From Candidatus Cloacimonadales bacterium (lineage in GTDB: Bacteria; Cloacimonadota; Cloacimonadia; Cloacimonadales; JAIOQZ01): 64,000 bases of DNA. The DNA lies in assembly GCA_963674825.1 (NCBI GenBank), contig OY771587.1, positions 1,632,001 to 1,696,000 on the forward strand. Direction: 5' to 3'. Under the pieces are notes generated by a model. It did not search any database. It saw only the letters and a list, made by a program, of their open reading frames with translations, and was not told the DNA's origin. Below are positions 30,902-52,100 of the stretch, piece by piece (position 1 is the stretch's first letter; each line of letters opens with the position of its first letter). The position numbers and the translations under genes are program-made.

Positions 30902-30978
30902 GGGTGATTAGCTCAGTTGGTTAGAGTACTTCGTTGACATCGAAGGGGTCACTAGTTCGAATCTAGTATCACCCACCA
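30902..30978 (+). tRNA. tRNA-Val (GAC)
   Basis: Acceptor GGGTGAT/ATCACCC-A-CCA; anticodon arm CTTCG-TTGACAT-CGAAG; TTCGAAT T-loop. Confidence 0.96.
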
Positions 30979-31008: not shown

Positions 31009-31085
31009 GGGTGATTAGCACAGCTGGTTAGCGCGCATCGTTCACATCGATGAGGTCACTGGTTCGAATCCAGTATCACCCACCA
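31009..31085 (+). tRNA. tRNA-Val (CAC)
   Basis: Acceptor GGGTGAT/ATCACCC-A-CCA; anticodon arm CATCG-TTCACAT-CGATG. Confidence 0.95.
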
Positions 31086-31369
31086 CTTAAACCAAACAAC
31101 TTATTTATTTGTAATAAGATACTAGTGTAAAGTTGTAAAGTGACTGTGTAAAGTGACACCTTCATTTTCCACTTTGTGACAGCATGATTTCCTTACTTCC
31201 GAAATGGAAGTGACAGGAAATGTTCTTAACTCCCGCACCATCAATCACATTCATGCAGTCACTTTCTCAAGTTGCAAGTGACGGCAGTCTTTCCATTGAA
31301 TCGTCCTGATTTTTTTTGCCGTTGTCAGTTAACTTAGTTTCCGGGCTGCAGGTAATCTGGCTCAACCAA

Positions 31370-31583: not shown

Positions 31584-34082
31584 ATGAGAAACAATGAAAA
31601 ATGGTTTCATAATCAGGTAAAGCAATATCAACAGGATCGAGAGAATTACATCCAATTGGCTGATGTGCTTCAGCAGATATTATTCCGAGCATCTGAGATA
31701 TATTCACCACTTGCCATCATACAGACAAGACCGAAGTCAGTATCGAGTTTCGCTGAAAAATGTCTGAGAAAAGCGGATAAATATATCGACCCGGTTCACC
31801 AGCTTACAGACCTCTGTGGTGGTCGAATTGTTTGCCACACCAATACGCAGGTGCAGCGCCTTTGCAGGTTCATCCTTGAAGAGTTTATTGTAGACAATGC
31901 CAATAGTCTGGATGCAGGTTCACGTTTGCGAAATGAGGAGTTCGGATATTTGTCGGTCCATTACATCGTTGAAATAGATAACGAGAAGATTCTTGGGATT
32001 GGAGTTCCGAAGTCGTGCCGTAATCTCAAAGCGGAGATACAGATACGCACGCTGCTGCAACACACCTGGGCGGATATAATCCATGACCTGATTTACAAGA
32101 CACCGATTCAGGTTCCTTCCCAATTTATCCGAGAGTCCGCGCGGTTGGCAGCGATTCTGGAAAAGGCTGATGAGTCCTTCGAGAACTTCATGAACACCCT
32201 CTTGGAATACAAAAACAGTGCGCCCGAGATGTTCACGCAAAAACAGTTCGAAACCGAGAAACAAACGCTTGATTTGATTCAGTCAAGCGAGCCGGATCCG
32301 AAGAAGAAAGAAGAAATTGCTATCAGGCAAGCGCGGCTTTATCGATCCACCGATCAATTTCATGAAGTAGCGACGATTCTCCGAAATCATATCGATTTCA
32401 GCAAAAAACCACCGGATGAAGCGCTCTACTATCTTGCAGAAGCCCTGTTGATGCTCAAAGAGGATTCTCAATATTCTGAAGGACAATCCCAATTGAGAAG
32501 GATCATCGAAGAACATCCGCTTACATCCGAAAATATTGATAATCTGCGTCTGATGAACCCTGATGATTTCAGGATTCTGACAAAAGCATGTCATCTCTTT
32601 GGAATTTCATATATTGGAAAGGATCGGGATGAAGCTCTACCGTTGTTGAGAGAAGCATTCCATCTCGCTCCGGATAATCCCCGCTATGTTGTCGATTACA
32701 TTGAATGCTGTCTGCTCCTTGGCGATTCGGATTGTTGTGAACTGCTCAAGCCAATGATCCTAAATGCGATTGAGCACTGTACAACCAATCTGGATATACA
32801 TAAAGCCCGGATCGAGTTATATCTGTTGAAAGGTCGGTTGCTGCTCTATCTGAATCAGAAAGAAAACGCGATGGCATCGTATATGAAAGCCATTGATGTC
32901 ATCCGTAAACAGAAAACATCCAAAGCGATAAGGCTGTTGATGAAGGAGAAAAAGTCACTCGAAGTCCTGCAGAAACAAACGAATGATATTCGATGGAAGT
33001 GGGCTGTCGATCTGCTGAATCTGGCATACATGATAATCCATCGAAACAAGACTGCCAGCACAAGAACTTATATCATTGCAGGGAAATCCGATTTTCTGGA
33101 AGACGAGACCAGAAAAATGCTTGTTGATTCGTTTTACCGTGGCTTTCGATGGGGAAATCCGAAAATTATCAGCGGTGGTACCAACACCGGTATTCCCGGA
33201 TGTATCGGGGATGCTGTTCTGAAAATCAAAGAGGGTAGTCGCAAATTGATCAGGTTACATGGATATATCCACGCCAATATGCCGGATCAACTCAAGCATG
33301 AGGGCTACGATGAATGGATTGTTACGGACGACGACAAATTTTCCTTCGGGGAGGTGCTGGCATATTGGAATGATCTGTTACCATACGGTGATATCAAATT
33401 GATCGGCTATGGCGGTGGGGCGATCTCTGGTTTGGAATACCGCCTGGCGTTAGCTATGGGGGCGAAAGTAGCGTTGGTTCGAGGTTCGTACGGTGCTGCC
33501 GAGGAAGTGTATCACAGCCCGGAATGGGAAAAGCACGAAGGCTTGATTGTGTTGCCTGAAGATGCGGATACAATCATAGCATTTATCAATGATCGATACG
33601 ATAATCCAATGGAAGAAAACGATTTTGAAGGCATCGCTCGTGAAATACACAATCATTATCTCGAAGAAGAAATCAAAAATGGGAAGACAGCATCGGACTC
33701 GATGGCTCCTTGGGAACTATTACCGGAAACATATAAGGCTTCCAACCGTAATCAAGCATCATTCTGGATGTTCAATCTACTATCAAACGGCTTCCAACTT
33801 CGCGGTGGGCAGCCTTCGGAAATTGTCCCGATTACCTTCACTAGGGATGAGGTCGAGCGGCTATCGAAGCTGGAGCATGGGCGATGGACGTTGAATCGAT
33901 TAAATGATGGCTGGACGTATTCACGCGAGAAGGATCCACGAAAGAAGAGAACACCCTGGTTGGCAGGCTGGAACGAATTGCCCGAAGAGATCAGGGAATA
34001 CGACAGAGAAGCGGTTCGCCGCATACCGGTGCTGCTTGCCAGCCTTGGATTTGAAATTATCAGATTAGGAGATGAAACATGA
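31584..34082 (+). CDS. RelA/SpoT-type nucleotide pyrophosphokinase fused to TPR, SLOG-like and tandem RyR domains
   Basis: RPKSVSSFAEK, TDLCGGRIV, GYLSVHY, EIQIRT..QH.WA...H..IYK; helical repeats; ISGGTNTG and GYGGGAISGLEY; AREIHNHY...PW..LPE..K.SN and LEHGRW.....GW.Y....D.......L..W..LPE..REYD. Confidence 0.85.
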   Translation: MRNNEKWFHNQVKQYQQDRENYIQLADVLQQILFRASEIYSPLAIIQTRPKSVSSFAEKCLRKADKYIDPVHQLTDLCGGRIVCHTNTQVQRLCRFILEEFIVDNANSLDAGSRLRNEEFGYLSVHYIVEIDNEKILGIGVPKSCRNLKAEIQIRTLLQHTWADIIHDLIYKTPIQVPSQFIRESARLAAILEKADESFENFMNTLLEYKNSAPEMFTQKQFETEKQTLDLIQSSEPDPKKKEEIAIRQARLYRSTDQFHEVATILRNHIDFSKKPPDEALYYLAEALLMLKEDSQYSEGQSQLRRIIEEHPLTSENIDNLRLMNPDDFRILTKACHLFGISYIGKDRDEALPLLREAFHLAPDNPRYVVDYIECCLLLGDSDCCELLKPMILNAIEHCTTNLDIHKARIELYLLKGRLLLYLNQKENAMASYMKAIDVIRKQKTSKAIRLLMKEKKSLEVLQKQTNDIRWKWAVDLLNLAYMIIHRNKTASTRTYIIAGKSDFLEDETRKMLVDSFYRGFRWGNPKIISGGTNTGIPGCIGDAVLKIKEGSRKLIRLHGYIHANMPDQLKHEGYDEWIVTDDDKFSFGEVLAYWNDLLPYGDIKLIGYGGGAISGLEYRLALAMGAKVALVRGSYGAAEEVYHSPEWEKHEGLIVLPEDADTIIAFINDRYDNPMEENDFEGIAREIHNHYLEEEIKNGKTASDSMAPWELLPETYKASNRNQASFWMFNLLSNGFQLRGGQPSEIVPITFTRDEVERLSKLEHGRWTLNRLNDGWTYSREKDPRKKRTPWLAGWNELPEEIREYDREAVRRIPVLLASLGFEIIRLGDET

Positions 34083-34498
34083 ATAACAGACCAATCGTAG
34101 CGGTTCGGGTAATCCTGCGTAATGAAGACAACTCGATTCTCCTGCTGAAACGTGCTCAAACAAGCTATAGCGAAGGTGCGTGGTGTCTGCCGGGCGGAAA
34201 AGTTGATTACGGACAAACGCTCGAAGAAGCATGCGCCAACGAACTGAAGGAAGAAACCGGCCTGGACATCGGCGAGATCGAGTTGGTTGCCTGTCAGGAC
34301 AGTTTACCCGAGAAGGATGGGGATCCACACTTTTTGAACCTCTATTTCGAAGCGGAATACACAGGCACGATCACCTTGAACAACGAATCCTCGGCATATC
34401 AATGGGTTTCCAGCAACGAACTCGACAATTATCAAATCGTATTCGGAAACCGCGACATCATTGAGCAGATGTTCGAACAAGATACATCGGGAGATTAG
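34079..34498 (+). CDS. Nudix hydrolase
   Basis: ILLLKR...W.LPGG.V..G.....A...ELKEETGL; ATGA overlap with the upstream gene. Confidence 0.9.
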   Translation: MNNRPIVAVRVILRNEDNSILLLKRAQTSYSEGAWCLPGGKVDYGQTLEEACANELKEETGLDIGEIELVACQDSLPEKDGDPHFLNLYFEAEYTGTITLNNESSAYQWVSSNELDNYQIVFGNRDIIEQMFEQDTSGD

Positions 34499-34499
34499 C

Positions 34500-37400
34500 A
34501 TGGCGGAGAATAATCGAGAAATGCGAGTTTTTATCTCATCAACATTCCGGGATATGATCAATGAGCGTGATCATCTGGTCAAGCAAGCGTTTCCGAAGCT
34601 TCGGCAACAATGCGAGGCACGAGGCGTTATCTGGGGTGAGGTTGACCTCCGCTGGGGAATAACCAGCGAGCAGCAGGCCGAAGGGAAGGTGTTGCCGATC
34701 TGCCTGGAAGAAGTCGAACGCTGCCGACCATTCTTTATTGGAATCCTGGGTGAACGCTATGGATGGGTGCCATTGGAAATCGATGAAGATTTGATCCGAA
34801 AAGAGACTTGGCTTGCGGAGCACAGAGAACGCTCGGTTACAGAACTCGAGATCCTCCACGGCGTGCTGAACCACAAGGAGATGCAGGGCAAGGCGTTCTT
34901 CTATTTTCGCGATTCTGCCTGGCTGGATTCGATCTCTGATGAAGAAAGGTATAAATACCTCGAAGGTCCTACGGATCACGAGATTGAAACTCTTGGTATA
35001 GATCGAGCGGAACAACGGGCACAGGAAAGACGGATCAAGCTTCAGGAGCTGAAGAAGAAGCTGGAGGATTCTCCCGGTACGGTTACGCGCATATTTACAT
35101 CGCCTGACGAGTTAGTGGAAATGGTCACGGAGGACATGAGTCGGATCATCGACGAGCTTTTCCCGAAAGATCAGACTGTAAATCCATTCGAGATGGAGCG
35201 TATCGCTCATCACGCGGTGTCTGTGCAGAAATCAACTGTATATGTCAAGCGTCCCCTCTATTTCGAGCAAATGTATCGATTCATTGATGGAGATGAATCC
35301 TGCCTTCTGATATCAGGAGCTTCCGGTACCGGAAAGACTTCGATGGTTGCAAACTGGACCGAAGAATATCGTCAAACCTATCCCGACGATAACGTGTTTA
35401 TCCATTTTATCGGTTCCACCCCGCTCTCGAGCGATATTGAGAATCTTCTGTGGCGATTATTGGGAGATTTGAAAGACTGGTATAACATTCCCGAAGGTAT
35501 TCCACAGAATCCTGCAGAATACGCGCAGACGCTCGCAAAATGGCTAAAGCAGATATCAGATCAACAAAGGTGCGTCATTATTCTGGATTCGCTGAATCAA
35601 CAGGAAGACAAACCCGGCGTATCGAGCCTGACATGGCTACCGGTAGAGTTTCCTTCCAACGTGCGGCTGATCGTTACGAGCCTGGAAGGACCAGCATTCA
35701 CCGAACTGCTGAAGCGGAATGCACAGCAAATGGAGATCATGCCCTTCAAAGCGGATAGCAAGAAGCTGCTGATCGATAGTTACCTGCGCTGGTGTCACAA
35801 GAGTCTGGATTCCGAATCGGTTCAGCGGCTGATTGAATCAGATCATACAGACAACCCACTATATCTAAAACTTCTGTTGGAGGAATTGCGACTCGAAGGT
35901 AAGTTCGAGTCCCTCACCGAGCAGCTTACAGAATTCCTCAAAACGGAATCGATACCCCAATTGATGCTGCTTATTCTCGATCGACTGGAGCGTGATTACA
36001 TTGGCACAGACCACAACCTGGTACGCGATGCGTTTAGCTATCTTTGGGCATCCCGAACAGGGCTTTCGGAAGTGGAGCTACTCGATCTTCTCGGAAAAGA
36101 TGGACAACCGCTTGCATCGGGTATCTGGTCGCCTCTATCCTATGCCTCACGTCATCTGATCTCGATGAACTCCGGTAGACTTGTTATAACGCACAACTAT
36201 TTCAGGCAGGCAATCGAAGAGAAATATCTGACCGATTTCGAGGAACAGCGTCGGTATCGTCTCTTGCTGGCAGACTATTTCGGCAAGACGACGGTTACCA
36301 GATGGATGATGGAAACTCCCTGGCAATACGCCAAAGCCGGAGAGTGGATGATGCTGCGCGACCTACTCCTTCAAGACAACTTCCTATTCAAGGCGTGTAA
36401 ACAGATCGAATTCGAGTACTATGCCTATTGGGTGCAGATTGAGAAAAACACCAACATAACATTTCTCGAGTCGCTTGAAAAGTACATCGAAACACCGGAG
36501 CAGTTCGAAGCTCAAACCCTCTGGCAGATCGCTGGAATCCTTCACTATAAGATGGAAACAAAGAAGAGCATTAAGCTTTGGGCTTATCTATACCATTCGA
36601 TGAAAGACAGTCCAGACCGATTCAGGTATCTAGAAACGATCTTGAATTACTCATCAACGCTGAGCAGTGGAAATTCGGAGCAAATCAAGTTCTCATTAGA
36701 ACTCATGGATGAAGGCATGGCCCTTGCGAAAGAGCTTGGATTGGAAAATCGATATTATAGCTTGCTCATGAATAAATCGCTCGTGTTTGATCGATTGGGA
36801 CGTATCGATGAAAGCATTGAAATGAAACACGAATGTGAGAAGTATTTCAGGCAAAGTGGTCACAAAGAAGGTCTGCAAGCAACTCTGGCGAATATCATGA
36901 GCGTATATTTCTGGCGGGGGGATTATGATAAGGCTATCATATACGGCAAAGAATCACGGAAACTCAGTATCGAAACAGGAAACAAGTGGGCGGTCGTGAA
37001 TCTTGATAATTCTCTTGGTACGATCATGATTTATGCTAACAAACTGGAAGAAGCCGAAGCCACTCTCAATGAAGCGCTTGAGACTGCTCGAGAAATTGGG
37101 GACGATTATCATATTCAGATGATCCAGCAAACACGTTCCATGTTATTCTGTAATCTTGAAAGGCTGGAAGAAGCGCTCGAAGCAAACCGGGAATCGAAAG
37201 AGGTATGTGAGCGGATCCAGTTTTTGCAAGGTCTTATGAGCGCGTACTGCAACGAAGGCTCAATATTATTGTCATGTGAGAGGTTTGAAGAATCTCTTCA
37301 ATCAAGCTTCAAAGCGATAGAGTATTCAGATATTGCCGATCCGGATGGCTGCCGTTGTGTGTCATTCGGAAATATCGCCGCAGCCTTCATTCGAAAGGGG

Positions 37401-37640
37401 GATCTCGACCAAGGAGAAGAAGCTCTCGCCAGGTTCAGACAACTTGCAATCGAATCACAAAAACCGGACAGTCTTGCCTGGGCGTATATGCATCTGGCAG
37501 AACTACACTTTGCCAGAAAACAGTATCAGGAAGCACTAGAGGCAATCGAAGAGGGTGTAGAACATTGTAGTCGGTATGGACTTGAATTGATCATTGATCA
37601 GAGCGAGATATTGAAGGATCAAATCATTGAAGAAATGTAA
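34500..37640 (+). CDS. DUF4062 - STAND/NACHT-like NTPase - TPR protein
   Basis: RVFISSTFRDM..ER..L...DLRWG...CL.E...C.PFFIGILGERYG, SVTELE; Walker A GASGTGKT; Walker B VIILD; NPLYL; C-terminal TPRs. Confidence 0.88.
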   Translation: MAENNREMRVFISSTFRDMINERDHLVKQAFPKLRQQCEARGVIWGEVDLRWGITSEQQAEGKVLPICLEEVERCRPFFIGILGERYGWVPLEIDEDLIRKETWLAEHRERSVTELEILHGVLNHKEMQGKAFFYFRDSAWLDSISDEERYKYLEGPTDHEIETLGIDRAEQRAQERRIKLQELKKKLEDSPGTVTRIFTSPDELVEMVTEDMSRIIDELFPKDQTVNPFEMERIAHHAVSVQKSTVYVKRPLYFEQMYRFIDGDESCLLISGASGTGKTSMVANWTEEYRQTYPDDNVFIHFIGSTPLSSDIENLLWRLLGDLKDWYNIPEGIPQNPAEYAQTLAKWLKQISDQQRCVIILDSLNQQEDKPGVSSLTWLPVEFPSNVRLIVTSLEGPAFTELLKRNAQQMEIMPFKADSKKLLIDSYLRWCHKSLDSESVQRLIESDHTDNPLYLKLLLEELRLEGKFESLTEQLTEFLKTESIPQLMLLILDRLERDYIGTDHNLVRDAFSYLWASRTGLSEVELLDLLGKDGQPLASGIWSPLSYASRHLISMNSGRLVITHNYFRQAIEEKYLTDFEEQRRYRLLLADYFGKTTVTRWMMETPWQYAKAGEWMMLRDLLLQDNFLFKACKQIEFEYYAYWVQIEKNTNITFLESLEKYIETPEQFEAQTLWQIAGILHYKMETKKSIKLWAYLYHSMKDSPDRFRYLETILNYSSTLSSGNSEQIKFSLELMDEGMALAKELGLENRYYSLLMNKSLVFDRLGRIDESIEMKHECEKYFRQSGHKEGLQATLANIMSVYFWRGDYDKAIIYGKESRKLSIETGNKWAVVNLDNSLGTIMIYANKLEEAEATLNEALETAREIGDDYHIQMIQQTRSMLFCNLERLEEALEANRESKEVCERIQFLQGLMSAYCNEGSILLSCERFEESLQSSFKAIEYSDIADPDGCRCVSFGNIAAAFIRKGDLDQGEEALARFRQLAIESQKPDSLAWAYMHLAELHFARKQYQEALEAIEEGVEHCSRYGLELIIDQSEILKDQIIEEM

Positions 37641-37830
37641 ATACAATCTACCGTGCTTGTATAGCAATTCGACATGTCAAGACAGAGACTACTGAATTGA
37701 ACCGATATGCGCAACCAGTTCCTAAGCTAAACAGATAGAGCATATTACAGAAGAGGTGAGAGCCGCCCGTCAAACAAACACCTGTGAGATCGCTAAATCG
37801 TTTTTGCAGGATGGAAAGAAGGGTGTCAAC

Positions 37831-37920
37831 TTACAACTTCAACGCGTCGTCGTGATCCTTGAATGTTCGCTCCGGCCCCAACTCATGCTTCAGAATCCCG
37901 ATGATTCTTGCTTCGACTTT
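37831..37920 (-). pseudogene. IS3-family transposase C-terminal remnant
   Basis: Translates EARIIGILKHELGPERTFKDHDDALKL*, resembling AER.NGILK.E.GL...F in IS3-type transposases. Confidence 0.5.
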
Positions 37921-38024: not shown

Positions 38025-40025
38025 TTATTCTCCAACATGCACTTTCTTGAAATACTCACACTCCTTCAAGCCCTGAAAGATTTTATCTTCGCTGGTACTC
38101 AATTGATTTTGATAACCTTCGAGTTTATTCAGCTCAGCAATATCTTCCTGGGTTGCCTGACCCATACTCAAGCCAATCTTTCTCATTTTTTCGATGAGAT
38201 TCCTGATTCCTGAAATTGCGATCATCATGTTTCGGAATTCCTGTGCGATGTATTGACAGCCACCGATCTTCTCGATGATGAGAGATGCCTGAAACAGTTG
38301 TTCGTGTGCGATATCGAGCTCGTTGAAGCACTCCTGGGCGTAGTAGTTCAGTTCTTCCCAATTGGCGTCGTATTTATCACCTAGTCCGTCCTCTTGTATT
38401 CTGATCAGATATTTCGTCGCGGTATCTTTGTCCAGGTTGAAAAGATTCATCTGATCAATGGCACTACTGATATGGACATAAAGGGGATCGTAGGAGTTTT
38501 CATTATCTATAAGAATCGTTGGCTGGATGCCATTATTCAGCATTTTTCCATCCAGTATGGTATAAATTGCATTTGTGCCTTCATAGGCGTATATATTTCC
38601 AGAATAAGGTAAAGCGGATATCATTGTGCCCGAGAACCAGTATCCATCCACCCACTGGTATTGTATTTGTCCGAGGTTAACCGGGCCGGTTGATACTACC
38701 TCGTAAGCCTCGGAAACCTCGATTTCTTTCGGATGCAGGGGCTTGAACTCCAGACTCTTGATTGTGGATGTATCCGAATTGTAGTTCATCTCGATTATCA
38801 TGTGGTGCTTCTTATCGGTTACTCCCTCCGGCATCGAGACGCAAGTGTATTTGGTAGTCGATCGAACGTATTCGGGACCGAATTTCTTTTCGATTTCATC
38901 GTAGCTCATTTGTTTATCCAACCCGTACATGGTTAATTCGGATTCCCGATCGATCCTTAACAGGATCGAACAGATGACTCTGTCGTAGTCGGTCGTCTGG
39001 ATAACAATTTTACTCCCGGGCGCTACTGCGAACACGCCGTCTTTTTTGAAGCCGTATTTCTCCCGAAGTACCGTCCAATCCTCGTTCGAGTAGTCCTTTT
39101 TTCCAAACATCTCGATCATGTTCTTTGTTTTGTTTTCAGATAAATATTGCTCCCAGATATCGGGATGGGACTCTGCTGGCTCAGGGTTGTCGATGTATTT
39201 CACACTGCGGAGTTCGGTTTCAATGTCCTGATTCGAAGTTTTAGCTATGTGCTCATACGGATCAACGTATGTCTCCCCGGTCGTGCTCTGTTCAGCGGCA
39301 ACGAGGTTCATGATCGATTGACGTTCTTCGCTGGGCAACATCTGCAGGAAATCCTCTGCATCCTCCTGCCAGATGTTAGGCGGTGATTTGATGTAATCAC
39401 CCACGATCGTCACTTCGTCCACGATGAAATCACCCGATAAACTGTAACTGTATCGCAAGCTTACAGTTGCATCCCGTCTGTTGCCCTTTGGATAATAGAC
39501 GATTTTTGCTCCGTTTGGGTTTCCTTCCGACGCAGTGTCCTCGATATCCCATACGGTATTAGCTACAAAATGATTTCCTTCCTGAATCGCTTTTCCATAA
39601 GCATCCCAATCGAAGTTCTCCCAATCGATGTTTTTATCGTCCATACCATGATCGCTCGCTGAATCGTTATAGCCAGCCGTTGCGAGGAAATCCTTGTACC
39701 TGATCGGCAGACCGTAGAAAGCCAGCAATTCGCCGAATAAATTCTCGGATTCTTCGTCCTTTTTGCAGGTGAAAATAATCTCCTGGAGTCCTCTTGCCAG
39801 CGACATCGTAACACTGATTTCGATGTTATCATAGTATTTGTGGATGGTCGTATCCCCATTGAGTTCTTCGTATTGAACGCCCAATCTGAGGGCATAGTAG
39901 ATCACGAGCGGGTCATCGGCGGGTTTTCCGATGACGAGGTGAATAAGGGGTGAAGACGGGATGAAACCGAGCGCCGGGATAGATAACGAGAGAAATGCGA
40001 TGGCTGCTGTCAGAATGTATCTCAT
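38025..40025 (-). CDS. Hypothetical exported protein
   Basis: 666 aa ORF, signal peptide, SD GAGG; helical C-terminus; no family recognised. Confidence 0.7.
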   Translation of the reverse strand: MRYILTAAIAFLSLSIPALGFIPSSPLIHLVIGKPADDPLVIYYALRLGVQYEELNGDTTIHKYYDNIEISVTMSLARGLQEIIFTCKKDEESENLFGELLAFYGLPIRYKDFLATAGYNDSASDHGMDDKNIDWENFDWDAYGKAIQEGNHFVANTVWDIEDTASEGNPNGAKIVYYPKGNRRDATVSLRYSYSLSGDFIVDEVTIVGDYIKSPPNIWQEDAEDFLQMLPSEERQSIMNLVAAEQSTTGETYVDPYEHIAKTSNQDIETELRSVKYIDNPEPAESHPDIWEQYLSENKTKNMIEMFGKKDYSNEDWTVLREKYGFKKDGVFAVAPGSKIVIQTTDYDRVICSILLRIDRESELTMYGLDKQMSYDEIEKKFGPEYVRSTTKYTCVSMPEGVTDKKHHMIIEMNYNSDTSTIKSLEFKPLHPKEIEVSEAYEVVSTGPVNLGQIQYQWVDGYWFSGTMISALPYSGNIYAYEGTNAIYTILDGKMLNNGIQPTILIDNENSYDPLYVHISSAIDQMNLFNLDKDTATKYLIRIQEDGLGDKYDANWEELNYYAQECFNELDIAHEQLFQASLIIEKIGGCQYIAQEFRNMMIAISGIRNLIEKMRKIGLSMGQATQEDIAELNKLEGYQNQLSTSEDKIFQGLKECEYFKKVHVGE

Positions 40026-41791: not shown

Positions 41792-42045
41792 AGGAATAAA
41801 CCTTTAGAATCAAGACAGTTGACATCAGTATTGCTTCGGAGCTTCATTTTGTCACATTTAAGATTAGGCCAGCCACATGCTCTTTTTGCAGTAAACGACA
41901 GGGGTGATTCTTCTGGCGCAATCCATCTCACAGTTATTTTTAGAAACACACACACTTATCTATAAGATAGTCTAATACCGTCCTTGCACGAAGTCAATTA
42001 AAATTACAGTGTCAACCTCAACTAGCTGAATACCAGTAAAGGCGA

Positions 42046-42206
42046 CATGTCTCTTCTGCCGATAACAGCAGTCTGGTGACGAACGGCCCATGGAGAAGCT
42101 TGGGAAGATGAGCGACAACAGCGCGAATGCTCCCATCATGCTCAAGAAAATGCAGTACGACCCAGTCAAGAAGCAGGTATTGCTCAAGCCGTTAGAAAGC
42201 TGTTGA
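42046..42206 (+). pseudogene. Degraded IS91-like (Y2) transposase fragment
   Basis: Frameshifted pieces HVSSADNS / GDERPMEKLGK...APIMLKKMQYDPVKKQVLLK resemble HSGFS.DN...D...ERL.RY..RAP.SL.K..Y....QV. Confidence 0.4.
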
Positions 42207-42793: not shown

Positions 42794-43148
42794 GCTAAAT
42801 GAATCTTGTTGTTTCGTCTCTGCGGATCCATGCTTTGTTGGTAATGCAAAGCAAGCAGCGTCAAATCATTAATGATCAGAAGATAGAAACGCTTTTTACA
42901 GAGTTGAAAGTTCACATAAGTCCGCAAGCAGAAGCGACAGTAAACATCCTTGTTTAGCGTCCTCTCTATCATATAATAACAATCCCTCTTCCAAGTTGAT
43001 AATGACGGTCGTTTCCCATGATTCTATTCTGATTATACGGCAAATACTTACACATCCCAAATTAGTCTGAGTTCTACATGGATTCTTGATCATATCGGAA
43101 CGAAATATGCATATTTTGGTAGGTAACTACTTCATAAGGGGTTCTGCG

Positions 43149-46100
43149 ATGAAAAAGTCCATGTTGTCAGTGTTTCTGTTATTTATATTTCTTACATTCC
43201 TTGAAGCAGCTCCTGTTCTACAGAGCGACGCAGATATCGTTGCGGAGAACTGGAGCAAGCACTGGAGCGAATTGCGCAACAGTGAAATAAACGTTCGATC
43301 TTCAGAAACTATTGGGACACAACTATATCTGTATCACTTGGATCCAGCCGGATTCCTTTTGATTTCAGCTGATGATAACCTTGAGCCGATTCTGGCTTAC
43401 GATTTTACAACCACTGCCTCTGAGACAAAGCCAGACAACTTTTTAAGCTGGCTGGATGTGTATCAGGAAGAGTGCGACTATGTTCGAAGCCATGAAATCG
43501 ATGACACGCGTTGTAATCAACTCTGGTCTGAACTGTTGACAGACGACCTCTCCCGCTACCAGAACACTCGCAATGTATCCCCGATGATTTGGTCGCAATG
43601 GGGCGAAGGCGACGATTGGAATGATGCCTGTCCCGATGATCCGGATGGCCCTGGCGGAAATGCTTATGCCGGTAGCCATGCTGTCGCCATGGCAATGTTA
43701 ATGAAATACTGGAATCATCCTGCGCAGGGTGAAGGACAAAATAGCTATTATCTTCCTGAATACGGTGCTGTCGAAGCAGTATTTGATACGACCCACTACG
43801 GCTGGACGCATATGCCGAACTCATTTAGCACCAACTGGACAGAAAACTTGATCTTCCACTGCGGTGTTGCGACATTTATGGACTACAGTCCAACATCTTC
43901 AACCACATCGATTAACGCGGTAGCTCAGGCGATGGTCGATCACTTCCGTTACAGCTCAGAAATGGATCTCCTGGCCAGGTCGGACTACGACGAAACAGTT
44001 TGGGAAGGAATGGTGCGAACCGAGCTGGAAAATGGAAGACCGCTGCTCTACCAGGGCGAAGGCACAGCCTTGCACGCCCACTTGCTGGATGGCTATCAGA
44101 ATACCGATTTCTTCCATTTCAACTGGGGTAACGAAGGGCAGTACAACGGCTACTTCCAGTTGAGCGCTATTACGCCATCTACGGCCAACTATACCTCGAA
44201 TCAGAAAGCCTTGTTCAATGTGCAGCCCAGTCTTGGGCCAGATACAATCGACGAGAGCTTCGAAAATGACTGGAATACATTTAACTGGGAATTCGCCGGG
44301 CAATCGGAATGGCAAATCGCAACAGACGAACACTTTTATGGCATCAAATCAGCTAAATCCGGTGATATCAACCACAACCAGACATCAGAGATTTTCCAAT
44401 CCTGGAATGTATTGGAAGATGGTCCCATCACGTTCTGGTGCAGGGTCTCCAGTGAAGACAACGGTAATAACGATTATGATCGACTGGAATTTTGGATCGA
44501 CGGAGTCGAAGCAGATCGATGGGGCGGCGAGCGTGACTGGGAGCAAATGTCGTACGACATCACTGCCGGCGTACATGAGTTCCGCTGGATATACCGAAAA
44601 GACGGTAGCCTTGTCTCTGGGCAGGACTGCGCGTGGATTGATGCGATCGACTTCCCGGATGGCGCTACGCCGTTGAACGCACCTCAGAACTTCACAGCAA
44701 GCATCGTGAATGATGACTCCGTTCTCATGACGTGGGAAGCACCGCTTATCCGCAACCTTCTCGGCTATCGCATCTTCAGGAATAATGTCGAGATAACGAC
44801 AATCCTGAATCCGAATACCCTTCAATTCATCGACCTCAACCTGCCCAACGGATCGTATTCGTACTACGCCAGAGCAGTTTATGATTCCGGCGTGTCTGAT
44901 CCTACGATCACCCATGTCATCAACATCGAGGTACTCTATCCACCCACAGCTCTCGTGGCATCGGTGTCGAATTTCGACGATGTGCTGCTTGCCTGGAACA
45001 TGCCAGCAACGCAGCAGGCACGGCGAACGCCTATTAATACCCGTAGCCTGATGGGCTATCGCATTTACCGCGACAACACCCTGATTGATTCTGTAAACAG
45101 CCAGACAACTTTACAGTACGCCGATAATGATCTGCCTGAAGGAACACACGAATATCAGGTATCGGCAATCTATTCATCCGGTTATTCAGAGCTGTCCAAC
45201 GTCGCCGTAGCAGCCATCGGCGTTCCCTGGCCACCCTCAGAGCTGACGGCGCAGGTACAGAATTTCAACGAAGTTTTCCTGGATTGGACAGCGCCTCCGC
45301 AGACATCGGAAACGCTTACAGGTTACAAGATTTATCGTGGTCTGGACCTTGTGCATGAAATGACGGACATCACCAGCACCAGCTACACCGAACTCGATCT
45401 GCCTAATGGTACTCATGTGTATCATGTTACTGCAATCTATGGAGAAGTTGAGTCTGGTCCATCGAACACAGCAGTGGCCACGATTGAAGTACCCTATCCT
45501 CCCCAAAACCTTATTGCAGATGTCGCAGAAGACGACGTGACGCTGGATTGGGATGCCCCAGCCACTGGATCGCGCAATCTCACTGCCTATTACGTCTATC
45601 GAAATAACAGCCCGATCGCCACGATCTGGAATACGAATGTGACATCATATTTCGACCCGATGCTGGCGAATGGATTCTACGCATATAAGGTCATAGCCGT
45701 TTACGGTGATGTATATTCGGAACCTTCGAACATCGTGAATATTGAAATGGATATACCATATCCGCCATCCAACCTATCAGCACAGATTGAGAACTTGAAC
45801 GATATCGTCCTGAACTGGGATCAACCGCCTGTTCAGGGGGGATTGCGCTCGTTTCTCGGATATCACGTCGTGCGTAACGGTGAAAATCATGCACTGGTTA
45901 CGGATTTCAACCAGTTGACCTGGACCGACGAGAATGTTGACAACGGTGTCTACGAATACTTCGTTTACGCTGAATATAACGCCGGGAATTCGGAATCCAC
46001 CAACGATGTCGAAGTTACGGTGGAAGTGCTGTACCCGCCGCAGAATCCCTCTTATACAATCGATGATGACGACGTCGTTCTCACCTGGGACTTGCCGGCT

Positions 46101-49100
46101 ACCGGCGGTGGCCTCACTCGTGACCTGCTGGGCTACACCATCTACCGTGATGATATCTTGATCCAGACAATCAACGATCCTGCCGTTCTTACCTGGACGG
46201 ATTTGAATCTTGCCAACGCTACCTACACGTATTACCTGCAAGCAACGTACACCTCCGGTGTCTCAGCTCCAACCGATAACCTTGATGTTATGGTTGAAGT
46301 GTTCTATCCAGCTTCAAACCTTGTTGGAGAGATTATCAATGAGGACGATGTTGCGCTGACATGGTCTCCTGCATTGAACTCCGGCGGTCTTCGCATGTTG
46401 CAGGGCTATCGCGTGTTCCGGAATGATATCGCGATAACCGATGTCACCCCCGCAGACACGACATGGCTTGATTCTACGCTTCCCAATGGCGATTACATCT
46501 ACTACGTGAAAGCACTTTACGAAAATGGGCTTTCAGCTGAAACTAATCACGTACCGATTCACATCGAAGTGATGTATCCAGCACGACAACTCACCGCCTC
46601 TGTAACAGGTGATGATGTCAACCTGGCCTGGCTTGAGCCACTCACATCGGGCGGTCTTTCAAGAGACCTGCTCGGATACAGGATCTACCGGGATTCAGAT
46701 GAGATCGCGGTTATCAACGATCCGGCTCAAGTAGCGTTCATGGATATGAACCTGGACAACGGATCTTACAGTTACACGGTAAGAGCGGAATATGCTGTTG
46801 GCTTGTCTGAACCTTCCAACACAGCGCTCGCATCTATCGAGGTGCTGTATCCGCCCACAAACCTCACTGCTATTGTTACAAACGATACAGTCAGCTTAAA
46901 CTGGAATATACCGGACAATGGTCCCACGCGTAACTTGCTGGGCTACACGATCATCCGGAACGGAAGCGTATTGCTGCAAATAGCAGATCCCGCGACCGTT
47001 GGTTACGAGGATACTGGTCTGGCGAACGGCGAATACTCCTACGAGGTTGTTGCCGATTACTCAACAGGGCAATCTGCGTCTGAGGGGCCTGTAACAGCAA
47101 CTGTTGAGGTTCTGTACGCTCCCAGAAACCTTGGCTGTTCACTCGAAAATTACTACAATGCCGTGCTTACTTGGGATCCTCCGCTCAATCAGGGGGGGCT
47201 GACTAGAGTGATGAATGGCTACCAAGTGTTCAGGGATAGTGTCCTCATCGCCGATGTAACGGATGTGAACTATACCGATAACGCCCTGCCTGACGGCTCG
47301 TATGATTATACGGTGAAAGCCGTTTACACATCAGGCGTGTCGCAGGCCTCCAATACCGTCAATGCTATCATCGAATACCCCTACGCTCCAAGCGGATTGA
47401 GTGCGGCGGTCAGTCAGGACACTGTTTCCCTGGTCTGGACAGCGCCCAGCAGCAATACAGTCTTGGGGTACACCATTTACCGTGATGGAGTTTCAATTGC
47501 CGATATCAACGACTCGGCTATCCTGAATTTCAATGACACAGGCCTTGCTAATGGTAGTTATTCCTACTACGTGATTGCCCGGTACAACGTTGATGATTCA
47601 GTTCCCTCAAACACAGTCACCGCTACGGTCGAGGTGCTTTATCCGCCGCAGAATCTTGAAGCATCCGTCATGCAGGACGAAGTGACACTTTCGTGGGAGC
47701 TTCCTGCCGTGCAGGGTGGACTGACCCGTGATCTGCTGGGCTACAAGGTCTATCGCGATGGTAATCTGATAGAGGAAATAACCGGATCCCTGACATACAC
47801 GGATATTGATCTCGCAAACGGCGCTTATGACTACGAAGTGAGTGCTGTTTATACAACCGGTGAATCGCAGATGTCTAACCTCGTTACCGCTACGGTTGAG
47901 GTGCTTTATCCACCGCAGAATCTTACATATGCGGTCACTCAGGATGAAGTAACACTCACATGGCAGCTTCCGGCCGTGCAGGGCGGCTTGACCCGCGATC
48001 TGCTGGGCTACAAGGTCTATCGTGACGGTGTTCTGATTGAAGAGGTAAGCGGATCCCTGACATACACGGATATCGACCTCGCAAACGGCGCATACGACTA
48101 CGAAGTGAGTGCTGTTTATACAACCGGCGAATCGCAGATGTCCAATCTCGTCACCGCTACGGTCGAGGTGCTTTATCCACCGCAGAATCTTGAAGCATCC
48201 GTCATGCAGGACGAAGTAACACTCACATGGCAGCTTCCGGCCGTGCAGGGCGGCTTGACCCGTGATCTGCTGGGTTACAAGGTCTATCGTGACGGTGTTT
48301 TGATTGAGGAGATAACCGGAGTCCTGACGTACACAGACGTTAATCTAGCCAACGGCGCATACGACTACGAAGTGAGTGCTGTTTATACAACCGGTGAATC
48401 GCAGATGTCTAACCTCGTTACCGCTACGGTTGAGGTGCTTTATCCGCCGCAGAATCTTGTTGCAGAAGTTGCTCAAGATGAAGTGACACTCTCATGGCAG
48501 CTTCCTGCTGTGCAGGGTGGACTGACCCGCGATCTGCTGGGTTACAAGGTCTATCGCGATGGTGTGGAAATCACCGAAACCAACGATCTCAACTATCTCG
48601 ATATCGACCTCGCCAACGGCGTATACGACTACGAAGTGAGTGCTGTTTATACAACCGGTGAATCGCAGATGTCCAATCTTGTTACAGCAACCGTTGAAGT
48701 GCTTTATCCGCCGCAGAATCTTGAAGCATCCGTCATGCAAGATGAAGTAACACTCACATGGCAACTTCCTGCTGTGCAGGGTGGATTGACCCGCGATCTG
48801 CTGGGTTACAAGGTCTATCGTGACGGTGTAGAAATCAACGAAACCAACGATCTCAACTATCTAGATATCGATCTCGCCAATGGCGCATATGACTACGAAG
48901 TGAGTGCTGTTTATACAACCGGTGAATCGCAGATGTCCAATCTTGTTACAGCAACCGTTGAAGTGCTTTATCCACCGCAGAATCTTGAAGCATCCGTCAT
49001 GCAAGATGAAGTGACACTAACATGGCAGCTTCCTGCTGTGCAGGGCGGACTGACCCGCGATCTGCTGGGCTACAAGGTCTATCGTGACGGTGTTTTGATT

Positions 49101-52100
49101 GAAGAAATAACCGGATCCCTGACATACACAGATATCGACCTCGCAAACGGCGCTTACGACTACGAAGTGAGTGCTGTTTATACAACCGGTGAATCGCAGA
49201 TGTCCAACCTCGTCACTGCTACGGTCGAGGTGCTTTATCCGCCGCAGAATCTTGTTGCAGAAGTCACACAGGATGAAGTGACACTCTCATGGCAGCTTCC
49301 TGCTGTGCAGGGTGGACTGACCCGTGATCTGCTGGGCTACAAGGTCTATCGTGACGGTGTAGAAATCAACGAAACCAACGATCTCAACTATCTAGATATC
49401 GATCTTGCCAACGGCGCATATGACTACGAAGTGAGTGCGCTCTATACAAACGGTGAATCGCAGATGTCTAACCTCGTTACCGCTACGGTTGAAGTGCTTT
49501 ATCCACCTCAGAATCTTGTTGCAGAAGTCGCTCAAGATGAAGTGACACTTACGTGGCAGCTTCCTGCCGTACAGGGCGGACTGACCCGTGATCTGCTGGG
49601 TTACAAGGTCTATCGTAACGGGATTCTGGTTGAAGAATTAATTGGAGTCCTGACGTACATAGACGTTAATCTAGCCAATGGCGCATACGACTACGAAGTG
49701 AGTGCTGTTTATACAACCGGTGAATCGCAGATGTCCAACCTCGTTACCGCTACGGTTGAGGTGCTTTACCCGCCGCGCAACCTTTCGGCAGTGGTTTCCA
49801 ATGAGGTTAACGCCATCCTGAGTTGGGACGCTCCGCTTACCAGCGGCCGTTCACTCAACGGGTATCTCGTATTCCGCAATGGATCGCTGGTTGCGACAAT
49901 CGGTTCTCCGGCACAGCTGACATGGACAGATTACAGCCTGCAGAATGGCGGATACGATTATTCGATTCAGGCATTCTACACCACTGGGATTTCTCCTGCT
50001 AGCAACATCGCGCATGTGGACATCGACTACAACCCGGTGCTGGATGCGCCATCCAATTTGAACGCGACCGTAGTCAACGGCAACGATGTCGAACTGAGCT
50101 GGACCGGACCAGAATCAACACAGATCGGCTATAAGATCTATCGTGACGGCGCAGAAATAGCGGAATTGACCGATCCAACAACCGTCAGCTTCACCGATAT
50201 CGGACTTCCGAACGGCGTGTATGTATACGCTGTCACAGCGATTTATTCCGAAGGTGAGTCATCGCCATCCAACACGGCAGTCGCGGATATTCTGATAACC
50301 TCACCGCCGCAGGAACTTGTAGCGCAGATCCAGAACGATAACGAAGCTGCCCTTAGCTGGAACCCGCCGGTTAATTCAGGATACACCGGCTATGTGGTTT
50401 ATCGCAACAATGTTGTTATCGCGGTGTTGGAAGCAAATACGGAAAATTACACCGACACCGGGCTTGCCAACGGTGACTACGATTACTACGTGAAAGCGCA
50501 GTTCAATACCAACCTCTCCATCGCCTCCAACACGGCTTCCGTCAATGTGGAGATTCTGTATCCACCTACGGATCTGACGGCAGATGTAGTAAATAGCAAC
50601 GATGTAACGCTTACCTGGGCGGCTCCGGTGACAGGCCGTAGTCTCCTTGGTTACAATATCTATCGTGACGGTGTTCTGATTGACGAAGTGACCGGAGCTC
50701 TGACATACACGGACATCAACCTCGCTAACGGCGCATACGACTACGAAGTGAGTGCGCTTTATACATCCGGCGAATCGCAGATGTCCAACCTCGTTACCGC
50801 TTCAATCGAAGTGCTGTATCCGCCGCAGAATCTTGAAGCATCGGTGATGCAGGACGAAGTGACGCTCACCTGGCAGCTTCCTGCCGTACAGGGTGGACTG
50901 ACCCGTGCTTTCCTGGGCTACAACGTCTACCGCGACGGTGCAGAAATAGCCAATATCAACGATCCGGCAACGCTCACCTATCTCGACATCGATCTTGCCA
51001 ATGGCGCATACGACTACGAAGTGAGTGTGCTTTACACGACTGGCGAATCGCAGATGTCCAACCTCGTTACCGCTACGGTCGAGGTGCTTTATCCACCGCA
51101 GAATCTTACATATGCGGTTATGCAAGACGAAGTAACACTTTCGTGGGAGCTTCCAGCCGTACAGGGCGGGTTGACCCGTGCTTTCCTGGGCTACAAAGTC
51201 TACCGCGACGGTGCAGAAATAGCCAATATCAACGACCCGGCAACGCTCACCTATCTCGACATCGATCTTGCCAATGGCGCATACGACTACGAAGTGAGTG
51301 CGCTCTACACAACCGGCGAATCGCAGATGTCTAATCTTGTTACAGCAACCGTTGAAGTGCTTTATCCGCCGACCGGGCTCACGGCCACTGTGACAATTGA
51401 TGATGTGCTCCTCAACTGGAACATCCCACAGACGCAGCGCAGAAACCGCAGCCTGACCGGCTACCAGCTATACCGAAATGGATCGATGATTGCAACGATA
51501 GACAATCCGGCAATTACGACATATACCGAGACAGACTTGGTGAACGGAAGCTACACATACGAAGTTATGGCGACCTATTCCTCAGGCAATTCTCCGCTGT
51601 CTGAGCCTGCTGTTGCCGTTATCGCCGTCGTGACGCCTCCCGAGAATCCGGCGTTCACGATCTTGAACGGAAATGATGTAGATATAACATGGGAATTGCC
51701 AATCAACCAGACCACGCCAAACTCCTATACGATTTACCGTGATGGCGCGGACGTCCATACCACGGAAAACGGAACCGTACTTACATGGACTGACACAGAC
51801 CTCGAGAATGGCGACTACAACTACTGGCTTACAGCTACGTATGATGCCGGCGAATCGATCGCAACCGAGACAATGCTGGTGCAGATCGCAGTGATGAATC
51901 CTCCCACTGGGCTTTCGGCCGATGTGACGCTGGATATGGTGGAGCTTACGTGGATTGAACCCGCAAACGCTAGCGGATTACTGGGATTCATTGTCTATCG
52001 CGATAGCGTTGAGATTGCCCAGATCAATGCTCCCGATGTCTTCGTTTACGATGACTTCGATCTGGCAGCGGGTGACTACCAGTACTTCGTCACGGCGAAT

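Follow-up and report, generated by a model that had tools for sequence, protein, structure and literature searches.

In Thoeris of type I, ThsB, a TIR protein, makes 3' cyclic ADP-ribose (3'cADPR), which acts on ThsA, an effector that joins SLOG and SIR2 domains. Toxic small alarmone synthetases (toxSAS), among them FaRel with its small alarmone hydrolase (SAH) partner ATfaRel, FaRel2 and CapRel, are small and essentially single-domain enzymes. Swarozyc and Evangelion are single genes in which DUF4062 is joined to a small auxiliary domain and depletes NAD+, phage RyDEP proteins are stand-alone RyR-domain proteins that counter Thoeris, and the TRPM2 chanzyme combines an MHR1/2 SLOG sensor with a NUDT9-H Nudix eraser of ADP-ribose. 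Here we describe a three-gene operon at 31584-37640 of a 64,000-nucleotide stretch from a Candidatus Cloacimonadales bacterium (contig OY771587.1, positions 1,632,001 to 1,696,000 of the forward strand), hereafter called the window. On balance, we lean towards reading this operon as a Thoeris-like two-tier nucleotide relay with a new effector. Its genes and predicted domains are as follows (aa, amino acids).

31584-34082, + strand: gene 1, RelA/SpoT synthetase-TPR-SLOG-RyR protein, predicted effector (832 aa; Pfam RelA_SpoT, TPR, RyR)
31596-32207, + strand: small-alarmone-synthetase domain, aa 5-208 (Pfam and fold match)
32220-33044, + strand: TPR-like helical solenoid, aa ~213-487 (Pfam and fold match)
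33051-33599, + strand: SLOG domain, LSDAT/TRPM-like, aa ~490-672, candidate sensor of an ADP-ribose-family ligand (fold match)
33615-34061, + strand: tandem RyR (Repeat12-like) domain, aa ~678-826 (Pfam, Foldseek and profile alignment)
34079-34498, + strand: gene 2, Nudix hydrolase (139 aa; Pfam NUDIX)
34500-37640, + strand: gene 3, TEP1-like DUF4062-NACHT/STAND-TPR protein, predicted sensor and NADase (1046 aa; Pfam)
34515-34958, + strand: DUF4062 TIR-like NADase domain (match to TEP1, PDB 11gz)
35277-35789, + strand: NACHT-like P-loop NTPase (Walker A and clade-type Walker B)
36717-37619, + strand: C-terminal TPR repeats, predicted trigger-binding region (Pfam)

Genes 1 and 2 overlap by an ATGA at 34079-34082, as read in the sequence, and a single base (position 34499) separates gene 2 from gene 3 when the latter is counted from the ATG at 34500. 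A preliminary description, made from the window's letters alone, had claimed three co-oriented, tightly coupled genes comprising an alarmone synthetase fusion, a Nudix hydrolase and a DUF4062-STAND-TPR protein. Both the coupling and the composition are borne out (Pfam RelA_SpoT, TPR and RyR in gene 1; NUDIX in gene 2; DUF4062, AAA_16/NACHT-like and TPR in gene 3), and the operon of three genes is confirmed and is found again at other loci.

Like Thoeris, the operon sets a TIR-like, predicted NAD+-cleaving protein beside a SLOG effector. At the sequence level its DUF4062 carries a catalytic Glu (E117, equivalent to E1008 of TEP1) without being a ThsB-type TIR, and several sensors can flank one effector, as in an island of a related genome described below. 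Unlike in Thoeris, the predicted effector is a RelA_SpoT synthetase, which corresponds to no described type such as SIR2-SLOG or TM-Macro, the sensor is a DUF4062-NACHT-TPR protein of the NLR kind, and the operon has an extra RyR pocket and, at related loci, a dedicated Nudix or HD eraser. The PADLOC models of ThsA and ThsB matched none of the three operon genes at E<=0.1, and the main text of the expanded Thoeris survey mentions no alarmone effector. Judged from sequence, the operon is outside Thoeris by effector type.

The structural evidence for this effector comes from an AlphaFold model of the gene 1 protein (predicted local distance difference test score, pLDDT, 93). In structure searches, its synthetase domain matched RelP (6ewz; Z 17.7, root-mean-square deviation (rmsd) 2.9, 188 residues aligned), the model also matched TPR solenoids, and RyR3 Repeat12 was among its Foldseek matches. 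All 106 aligned proteins share the synthetase residues R49, K51, K59, D76, G79, R81, Y122, H126, E151 and Q153. When mapped by motif spacing, R49, K51, S55, K59, R62, D76, G79, R81, E151 and Q153 share the spacing of the FaRel2 active site (R64, K66, S70, K74, R77, D90, G93, R95, E145 and Q147; PMC11782079; here and below, papers given by identifier are cited from partial text). By these residues the predicted active site is intact, and its acceptor may be a G or A nucleotide or tRNA. An intact small-alarmone-synthetase site and an adjacent hydrolase, SAH-like in one clade, are shared with toxSAS. Gene 1 differs from toxSAS in being an 832-aa multi-sensor protein whose family has Nudix as its usual partner and is linked to TIR-like NADases.

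The SLOG domain proposed in the preliminary description had no Pfam match in the gene 1 protein itself. It is supported by fold (TM1055, 1rcu, Z 18.7; TRPM2, 8sr7, Z 16.9; ThsA, 7uxt, Z 13.8, rmsd 3.3, 158 aligned) and by LSDAT_prok (PF18171), which is matched in 51 of the 120 homologues listed. The LSDAT SLOG domains were reportedly defined by Burroughs et al. in 2015. These homologues come from a family search with 158 matches among 8000 candidates; RelA_SpoT and RyR are both present in all 120 listed, Nudix is fused onto four, and longer fused forms of the family were not found, which is weak evidence. The family occurs in 330 genome stretches and at least 550 metagenome stretches, and the related loci kept for comparison span many bacterial and archaeal phyla. 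A search with the SLOG domain only returned 742 representatives, and among the best 150 the synthetase-SLOG-RyR architecture was present in 69 of the 73 with at least 780 aa; the same profile, searched by sequence, found no SLOG structure. Three further representatives (P0163, P0192 and P0240) carry the SLOG module, with or without RyR, in other architectures: SLOG-RyR stands at the N-terminus of ~920-aa proteins, and SLOG at the C-terminus of a P-loop protein. One full-length 830-aa homologue with the synthetase-TPR-SLOG-RyR architecture (P0112, KAL4778615.1) is annotated in the fungus Aspergillus varians, reflecting either horizontal transfer or contamination.

The second candidate receptor of gene 1 is its RyR domain. 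A 2026 preprint reports that phage RyDEP proteins bind or cleave 2'/3'cADPR through H75, W78, H100 and D117, and that, among eight homologues tested, none was catalytic and six bound the signal (PMC13232231); the accessible text of that preprint mentions neither RelA nor SLOG nor fusions. In a family profile alignment these residues correspond to H765, W768, T790 and D807 of gene 1, so that the PF02026 domain has the equivalents of the His/Asp dyad and the adenine-bracing Trp while the phosphate-binding His100 is replaced. Among 93 synthetase-fused copies, the H75 equivalent is His in 93, the W78 equivalent Trp in 85 and the D117 equivalent Asp in 91. The match to RyDEP is based on the family profile (E 2e-11) and hhalign (83%); pairwise blastp between the RyR repeat of the window and RyDEP was not significant. 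Unlike the stand-alone phage proteins, the RyR domain of gene 1 is chromosomal, tandem and C-terminal, and is fused to SLOG and synthetase domains.

Gene 3 supplies the candidate writer of the signal. Its residues 6-153 match the TIR-like domain of human TEP1 (PDB 11gz) at E 8e-27, and R17, K63, R86 and E117 correspond to R908, R954, R976 and the catalytic E1008 of TEP1, with the offset worked out by hand from the alignment. The catalytic-Glu motif is present in 29 of 39 DUF4062 matches of related loci, the misses being mostly fragments. The NTPase scores above the cut-off for AAA_16 and below it for NACHT (23.3 bits, cut-off 26.7), and its Walker A and B motifs are intact. The protein shares the DUF4062-NACHT-repeat layout of TEP1, NWD1 and NPHP3 and the effector-NTPase-repeat layout of bacterial NLR-related STAND proteins of the TEP1 clade. 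It also has in common with Swarozyc, Evangelion and TEP1 a DUF4062 with the catalytic Glu. Unlike in Swarozyc and Evangelion, the NADase-type domain precedes a NACHT-like NTPase and TPRs and is operonic with a second-messenger enzyme; the Evangelion paper, in its accessible text, sets TEP1-like proteins apart. The predicted architecture of the operon is accordingly neither that of toxSAS nor that of Swarozyc. DUF4062 is described as an NADase family: bacterial Swarozyc and human TEP1 yield linear ADP-ribose, and the three other human DUF4062-NACHT members were inactive (10.64898/2026.05.01.722283). The DUF4062 of gene 3 is probably itself a signal writer, and because of this the operon would hold two nucleotide tiers. 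With the profiles used, it is the sole TIR-like domain of the host genome, where a TIR_2 profile search gave no match.

The relay that we propose would start with the TPR region of the STAND protein, which would bind an invader cue so that the NACHT module oligomerises. The TEP1-like DUF4062, in which the catalytic residues are present, would then cleave NAD+ to ADP-ribose or a cyclic derivative, and this signal would bind the 832-aa protein in its SLOG and/or RyR pocket; the folds and pocket residues are consistent with such a ligand. Ligands of the ADP-ribose family are bound by the MHR1/2 SLOG of TRPM2 (PMC11479946, PMC13143021) and by the pocket of ThsA (Thoeris survey). Binding would release the RelA/SpoT domain, with its intact active site, to pyrophosphorylate G/A nucleotides, or possibly tRNA, and arrest the cell. 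The Nudix hydrolase, which is linked to the synthetase at related loci, would set the threshold and, through hydrolysis of alarmone and/or ADP-ribose, bring the system back to rest; should the signal be cyclic, the His/Asp pair of RyR could also open it into a linear form for this enzyme. Activity, ligand and product are all predicted in these steps, and we give the scheme slightly better than even credence, its anti-phage role being putative. The preliminary description had proposed a sensor, a writer and an eraser acting as one module; conserved neighbourhoods and intact catalytic motifs agree with this, and the roles shift in that DUF4062 is probably also a writer and the Nudix enzyme may erase ADP-ribose.

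The role of the Nudix enzyme was assessed across a sample of 160 related loci (80 genome and 80 metagenome stretches kept by the synthetase motif), of which 124 are non-redundant at 90% synthetase identity. The Nudix box glutamates E55, E58 and E59 are invariant in 46 of 46 aligned proteins. In gene 2, positions 46 and 54 of the box are Q and N in place of E and R, and the protein is MutT-like without a specific family match; a single-sequence fold reached a pLDDT of 37. A co-oriented Nudix gene adjoins the synthetase in 61 of the 124 loci and a small HD gene resembling the SpoT/Rel hydrolase domain (SAH-like) in 10, the two never occurring together, so that a Nudix or SAH-like HD gene of putative neutralising role adjoins it in 71; the remaining 53, many on short contigs, have neither. 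The Nudix neighbours are of at least two sequence types and lie on either side of the synthetase gene. A Fisher test of Nudix/HD mutual exclusion (p 1e-4) was set aside, since the HD loci fall into one or two clades.

SAH antitoxins neutralise toxSAS (PMC7229694), and an SAH-like gene in place of Nudix therefore favours alarmone removal. The substrate of the Nudix enzyme may nonetheless be ADP-ribose rather than alarmone: the parallel with TRPM2, in which an LSDAT-type SLOG fold is likewise paired with a Nudix hydrolase, would favour removal of ADP-ribose. The parallel has limits, since the operon output is a synthetase and no channel, and its Nudix is encoded separately and resembles MutT rather than NUDT9. 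The same logic of SLOG sensor and Nudix eraser (PMC11479946) also fits a reverse circuit, in which an RyR glycosidase and the Nudix enzyme would chiefly break down the signal made by TIR/DUF4062, with the synthetase as a switch for recovery or dormancy that shields the cell against its own NADases. The RyDEP catalytic dyad kept in gene 1 would suit such damping. We consider it very unlikely, given that eight RyDEP homologues, when tested, showed no catalysis and six of them bound the signal (PMC13232231), and that replacement of Nudix by an SAH-like HD gene points to alarmone removal.

Returning to the proposed relay, 32 of the 124 loci have DUF4062 in their flanks, 43 have TIR and 64 have one or the other; 40 carry an additional RyR gene. 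For the first 50 genome loci (out of 80), random expectations were drawn from genome-wide copy counts. DUF4062 is found within the retrieved flank at 17 of these loci (in three of them broken or fragmentary), where chance predicts 0.18; for TIR the count is 19, where chance predicts 0.52, and 31 loci have at least one of the two. Kinship and island clustering inflate these ratios. Within the phylum, DUF4062-STAND genes are present in 4 of 4 synthetase-bearing genomes versus 7 of 228 others (11 of 232 in total). The preliminary description had suggested looking for the three-gene neighbourhood in other genomes. It does recur, being contiguous as synthetase, Nudix and DUF4062-NACHT in 8 of 160 loci (six non-redundant) and in the window's gene order in L001, L008 and L152, and the exact triad is one of many arrangements. 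Two Louvain neighbour families (7 and 10) were dropped as antisense-frame artefacts. In a genome of the same order (G184:C38:9930-60936; L188-L190, L181), a ~50-kb island holds six DUF4062-NACHT genes, upstream of a single synthetase and a single Nudix gene, and two TIR genes. Two other RyR-domain genes, of 682 and 980 aa, are also found in this island.

These neighbourhoods could instead bring together two independent modules of one island, with the STAND-DUF4062 protein acting as a self-sufficient NAD-depleting NLR (Swarozyc/Avs-like) and the synthetase and Nudix as a toxSAS-type toxin and antitoxin gated by another cue. DUF4062 alone defends via NAD+ depletion (10.64898/2026.05.01.722283), toxSAS are neutralised by SAH antitoxins (PMC7229694), and seven genomes of the phylum have DUF4062-STAND without the synthetase. 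The synthetase-hydrolase link (71 of 124 adjacent) is also tighter than the link to TIR or DUF4062 genes, which share a co-oriented run with the synthetase in 34 of 124. Against this stand the nature of the neighbours, the two domain types of the synthetase that bind NAD-derived signals in other proteins, and genome G118, where the synthetase-STAND adjacency persists without Nudix. When the first 330 aa of 140 of the 312 other neighbours were scanned with PADLOC, 17 matched, six of them as TIR domains and none as restriction-modification or Cas. Because of these proportions, the association is specific to the TIR type, yet these neighbourhoods, which the preliminary description had proposed to check for defence-island enrichment, are not classic defence islands. 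Overall, we regard independent modules as unlikely.

Several observations weigh against the relay itself. Of the 63 loci whose flanks extend 5 kb or more each way, 21 have no TIR or DUF4062 and 15 have no Nudix or HD gene; in G118, synthetase and STAND have no Nudix between them, and the HD swap represents one or two events only, in Bacteroidota (quick tree). The RyDEP H100 position, T790 in gene 1, is His in just 4 of 93 synthetase-fused copies, and the SLOG pocket residues are not mappable by sequence to any solved structure. Just one of four human DUF4062-NACHT proteins is active, and DUF4062 can kill by NAD+ depletion partner-free (10.64898/2026.05.01.722283). The product of TEP1 and Swarozyc is linear ADP-ribose, whereas RyDEP binding was shown for cyclic forms (10.64898/2026.05.01.722283; PMC13232231). 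Classic defence genes are scarce nearby, and the anti-phage role is therefore an indirect reading.

The operon matches no named PADLOC system, in line with the preliminary description, which had recognised none. Its genes gave only partial or generic matches: gene 1 covers positions 29-177 of 349 of PDC-S33, that is the synthetase part and not the full length, and gene 2 covers 8-131 of 135 of PDC-S07 at E 1e-17, weaker than its generic NUDIX match. Neither the architecture nor the operon was found described in a full-text literature search, which did not extend to Burroughs et al. (2015) or to supplements; either could list the architecture. The accessible text of the Thoeris survey, of the Evangelion, bNACHT and PADLOC-candidate papers, and of PMC9503650 and PMC7159879 makes no mention of it.

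If correct, the relay would join NAD-derived immune signalling and stringent-response alarmones in one cascade, and would give bacterial RyR domains a role in the host, their characterisation to date being limited to anti-defence proteins of phages. With a soluble enzyme that combines SLOG and RyR pockets and reports through a simple nucleotide product, the long-disputed question of whether cADPR/ADP-ribose binds RyR Repeat12 could be tested directly, and the gene 3 STAND protein would be a bacterial model for TEP1-type NLR NADases. The ligand pockets of the relay also occur in animal calcium channels; an immune-type relay of this kind is so far undescribed in the literature searched. More tentatively, and as a possibility that we hold with some doubt, host-encoded RyR domains may serve as the receptors for (cyclic) ADP-ribose in an immune network widespread among prokaryotes, in which NLR-like TIR/DUF4062 sensors write the signal and the present alarmone synthetase, a channel with two transmembrane helices (2TM-RCK-RyR) and an AAA-RyR ATPase read it. 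This locus would then be its minimal form and a prokaryotic forerunner of both TRPM2-ADP-ribose and RyR-cADPR signalling, and with it one second messenger would for the first time be seen to control the making of another.

Two recurring neighbours at related loci carry RyR domains of their own. One (L122:4740-6692 and 22 aligned relatives) has two predicted transmembrane helices followed by TrkA_N/RCK and RyR; TrkA_N is matched in 23 of 23, RyR in 22 of 23 and the RyR His is kept in 23 of 23, and these proteins look like ligand-gated channels. The other (L039:10649-13270 and 15 aligned relatives) is a ~870-aa protein with an unassigned N-terminal half, an AAA ATPase and RyR, and keeps all four RyDEP-type residues in most copies (the H100 equivalent in 10 of 15). 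One Atlas cluster of these AAA-RyR proteins has Ascomycota as its commonest phylum, and a phage search with an AAA-RyR fragment found nothing. Sigma-54 activator genes lie upstream of the module at 10 of 160 loci (L107:1125-2834 and nine more).

The host genome is complete (3.89 Mb, 99.6%), and its nearest relative, at 83% identity, is labelled Candidatus Cloacimonadales. Genome-wide profile searches find its only RyR and only DUF4062 matches in the operon, four Nudix matches, and RelA_SpoT in gene 1 and one 746-aa housekeeping-type Rel, with no others. The operon is flanked by the following features.

30902-30978, + strand: tRNA-Val(GAC), first of a pair marking a variable insertion site
31009-31085, + strand: tRNA-Val(CAC), second of the pair, which ends 498 bp upstream of the operon
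31147-31294, no strand assigned: 149-bp dispersed repeat, with two further copies in the same genome
31296-31421, - strand: degenerate fragment of an Rhs-core-type gene, no transposase (35-45% aa identity to Rhs-type open reading frames (ORFs) of the host genome)
37696-37835, no strand assigned: repeat that in same-genus genomes borders the repressor end of a prophage-like element
37837-37908, - strand: transposase C-terminal remnant (79% aa identity to a multi-copy transposase C-terminus of same-genus genome G115)

The measured 498 bp agrees with the distance of about 500 bp from a tRNA-Val pair given in the preliminary description, which had also placed transposase-like remnants on both flanks. 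The downstream one is present; the upstream candidate was rejected, as that flank consists of the dispersed repeat and the Rhs-type fragment. We take the latter to be Rhs from its motif, and it matches an array of Rhs-type ORFs in same-genus genome G116; the downstream transposase is presumably of IS3 type, judging by ORF motifs.

The synthetase gene is present in 4 of 232 phylum genomes and in one of three other same-genus genomes. In G115 the tRNA-Val site holds a different, prophage-like insert, and in G117 the tRNA pair and the operon are set among other genes. Because of these differences and this distribution, the operon is variable cargo. Such patchiness, together with the tRNA insertion site and the expanded, variable STAND arrays, is typical of conflict systems and speaks against a non-antiviral stress or metabolic circuit. 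In such a circuit, SLOG and RyR would sense the status of NAD+/ADP-ribose or of ATP/ADP and adjust (p)ppGpp alongside the housekeeping Rel, and the STAND proteins would be regulators. That circuit draws support from the adenine nucleotides bound by RyR Repeat12 (according to PDB titles and an abstract listing) and from the sigma-54 activators, 2TM-RCK channels and AAA ATPases at related loci. It also accords with the searches of plasmids (two partial matches) and viral contigs (13 synthetase-only loci), which found no full-length gene 1 copy. We judge it quite unlikely.

No att-like duplicate of the tRNA-Val 3' ends (16-25 nt) was found in the host genome, the GC content of the locus shows no clear anomaly, and a promoter/terminator scan was uninformative (14 sites versus 10.6 expected, and 4 versus 5.1). 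The prophage-like insert at the tRNA-Val site of G115 (G115:C2:2723900-2758700; L177, L184, L187) measures ~35 kb and has direct copies of the 149-bp repeat at its boundaries; we take its genes to be Mu-like. Its end pieces are found in the window at 37696-37835 and 42005-42133. In G116 (G116:C4:72000-91999; L185), an array of many Rhs-core/C-terminal-tip and immunity-like pairs lies by tRNA genes. Further along the window, 38025-40025 (- strand) encodes a 666-aa protein without Pfam, NCBIfam or PADLOC match, which is located elsewhere in G117, and 43086-52964 encodes a 3292-aa protein that is presumably secreted, with what we take to be a protease-like N-terminus, a lengthy series of near-identical ~90-aa repeats and a C-terminal sorting-type domain.

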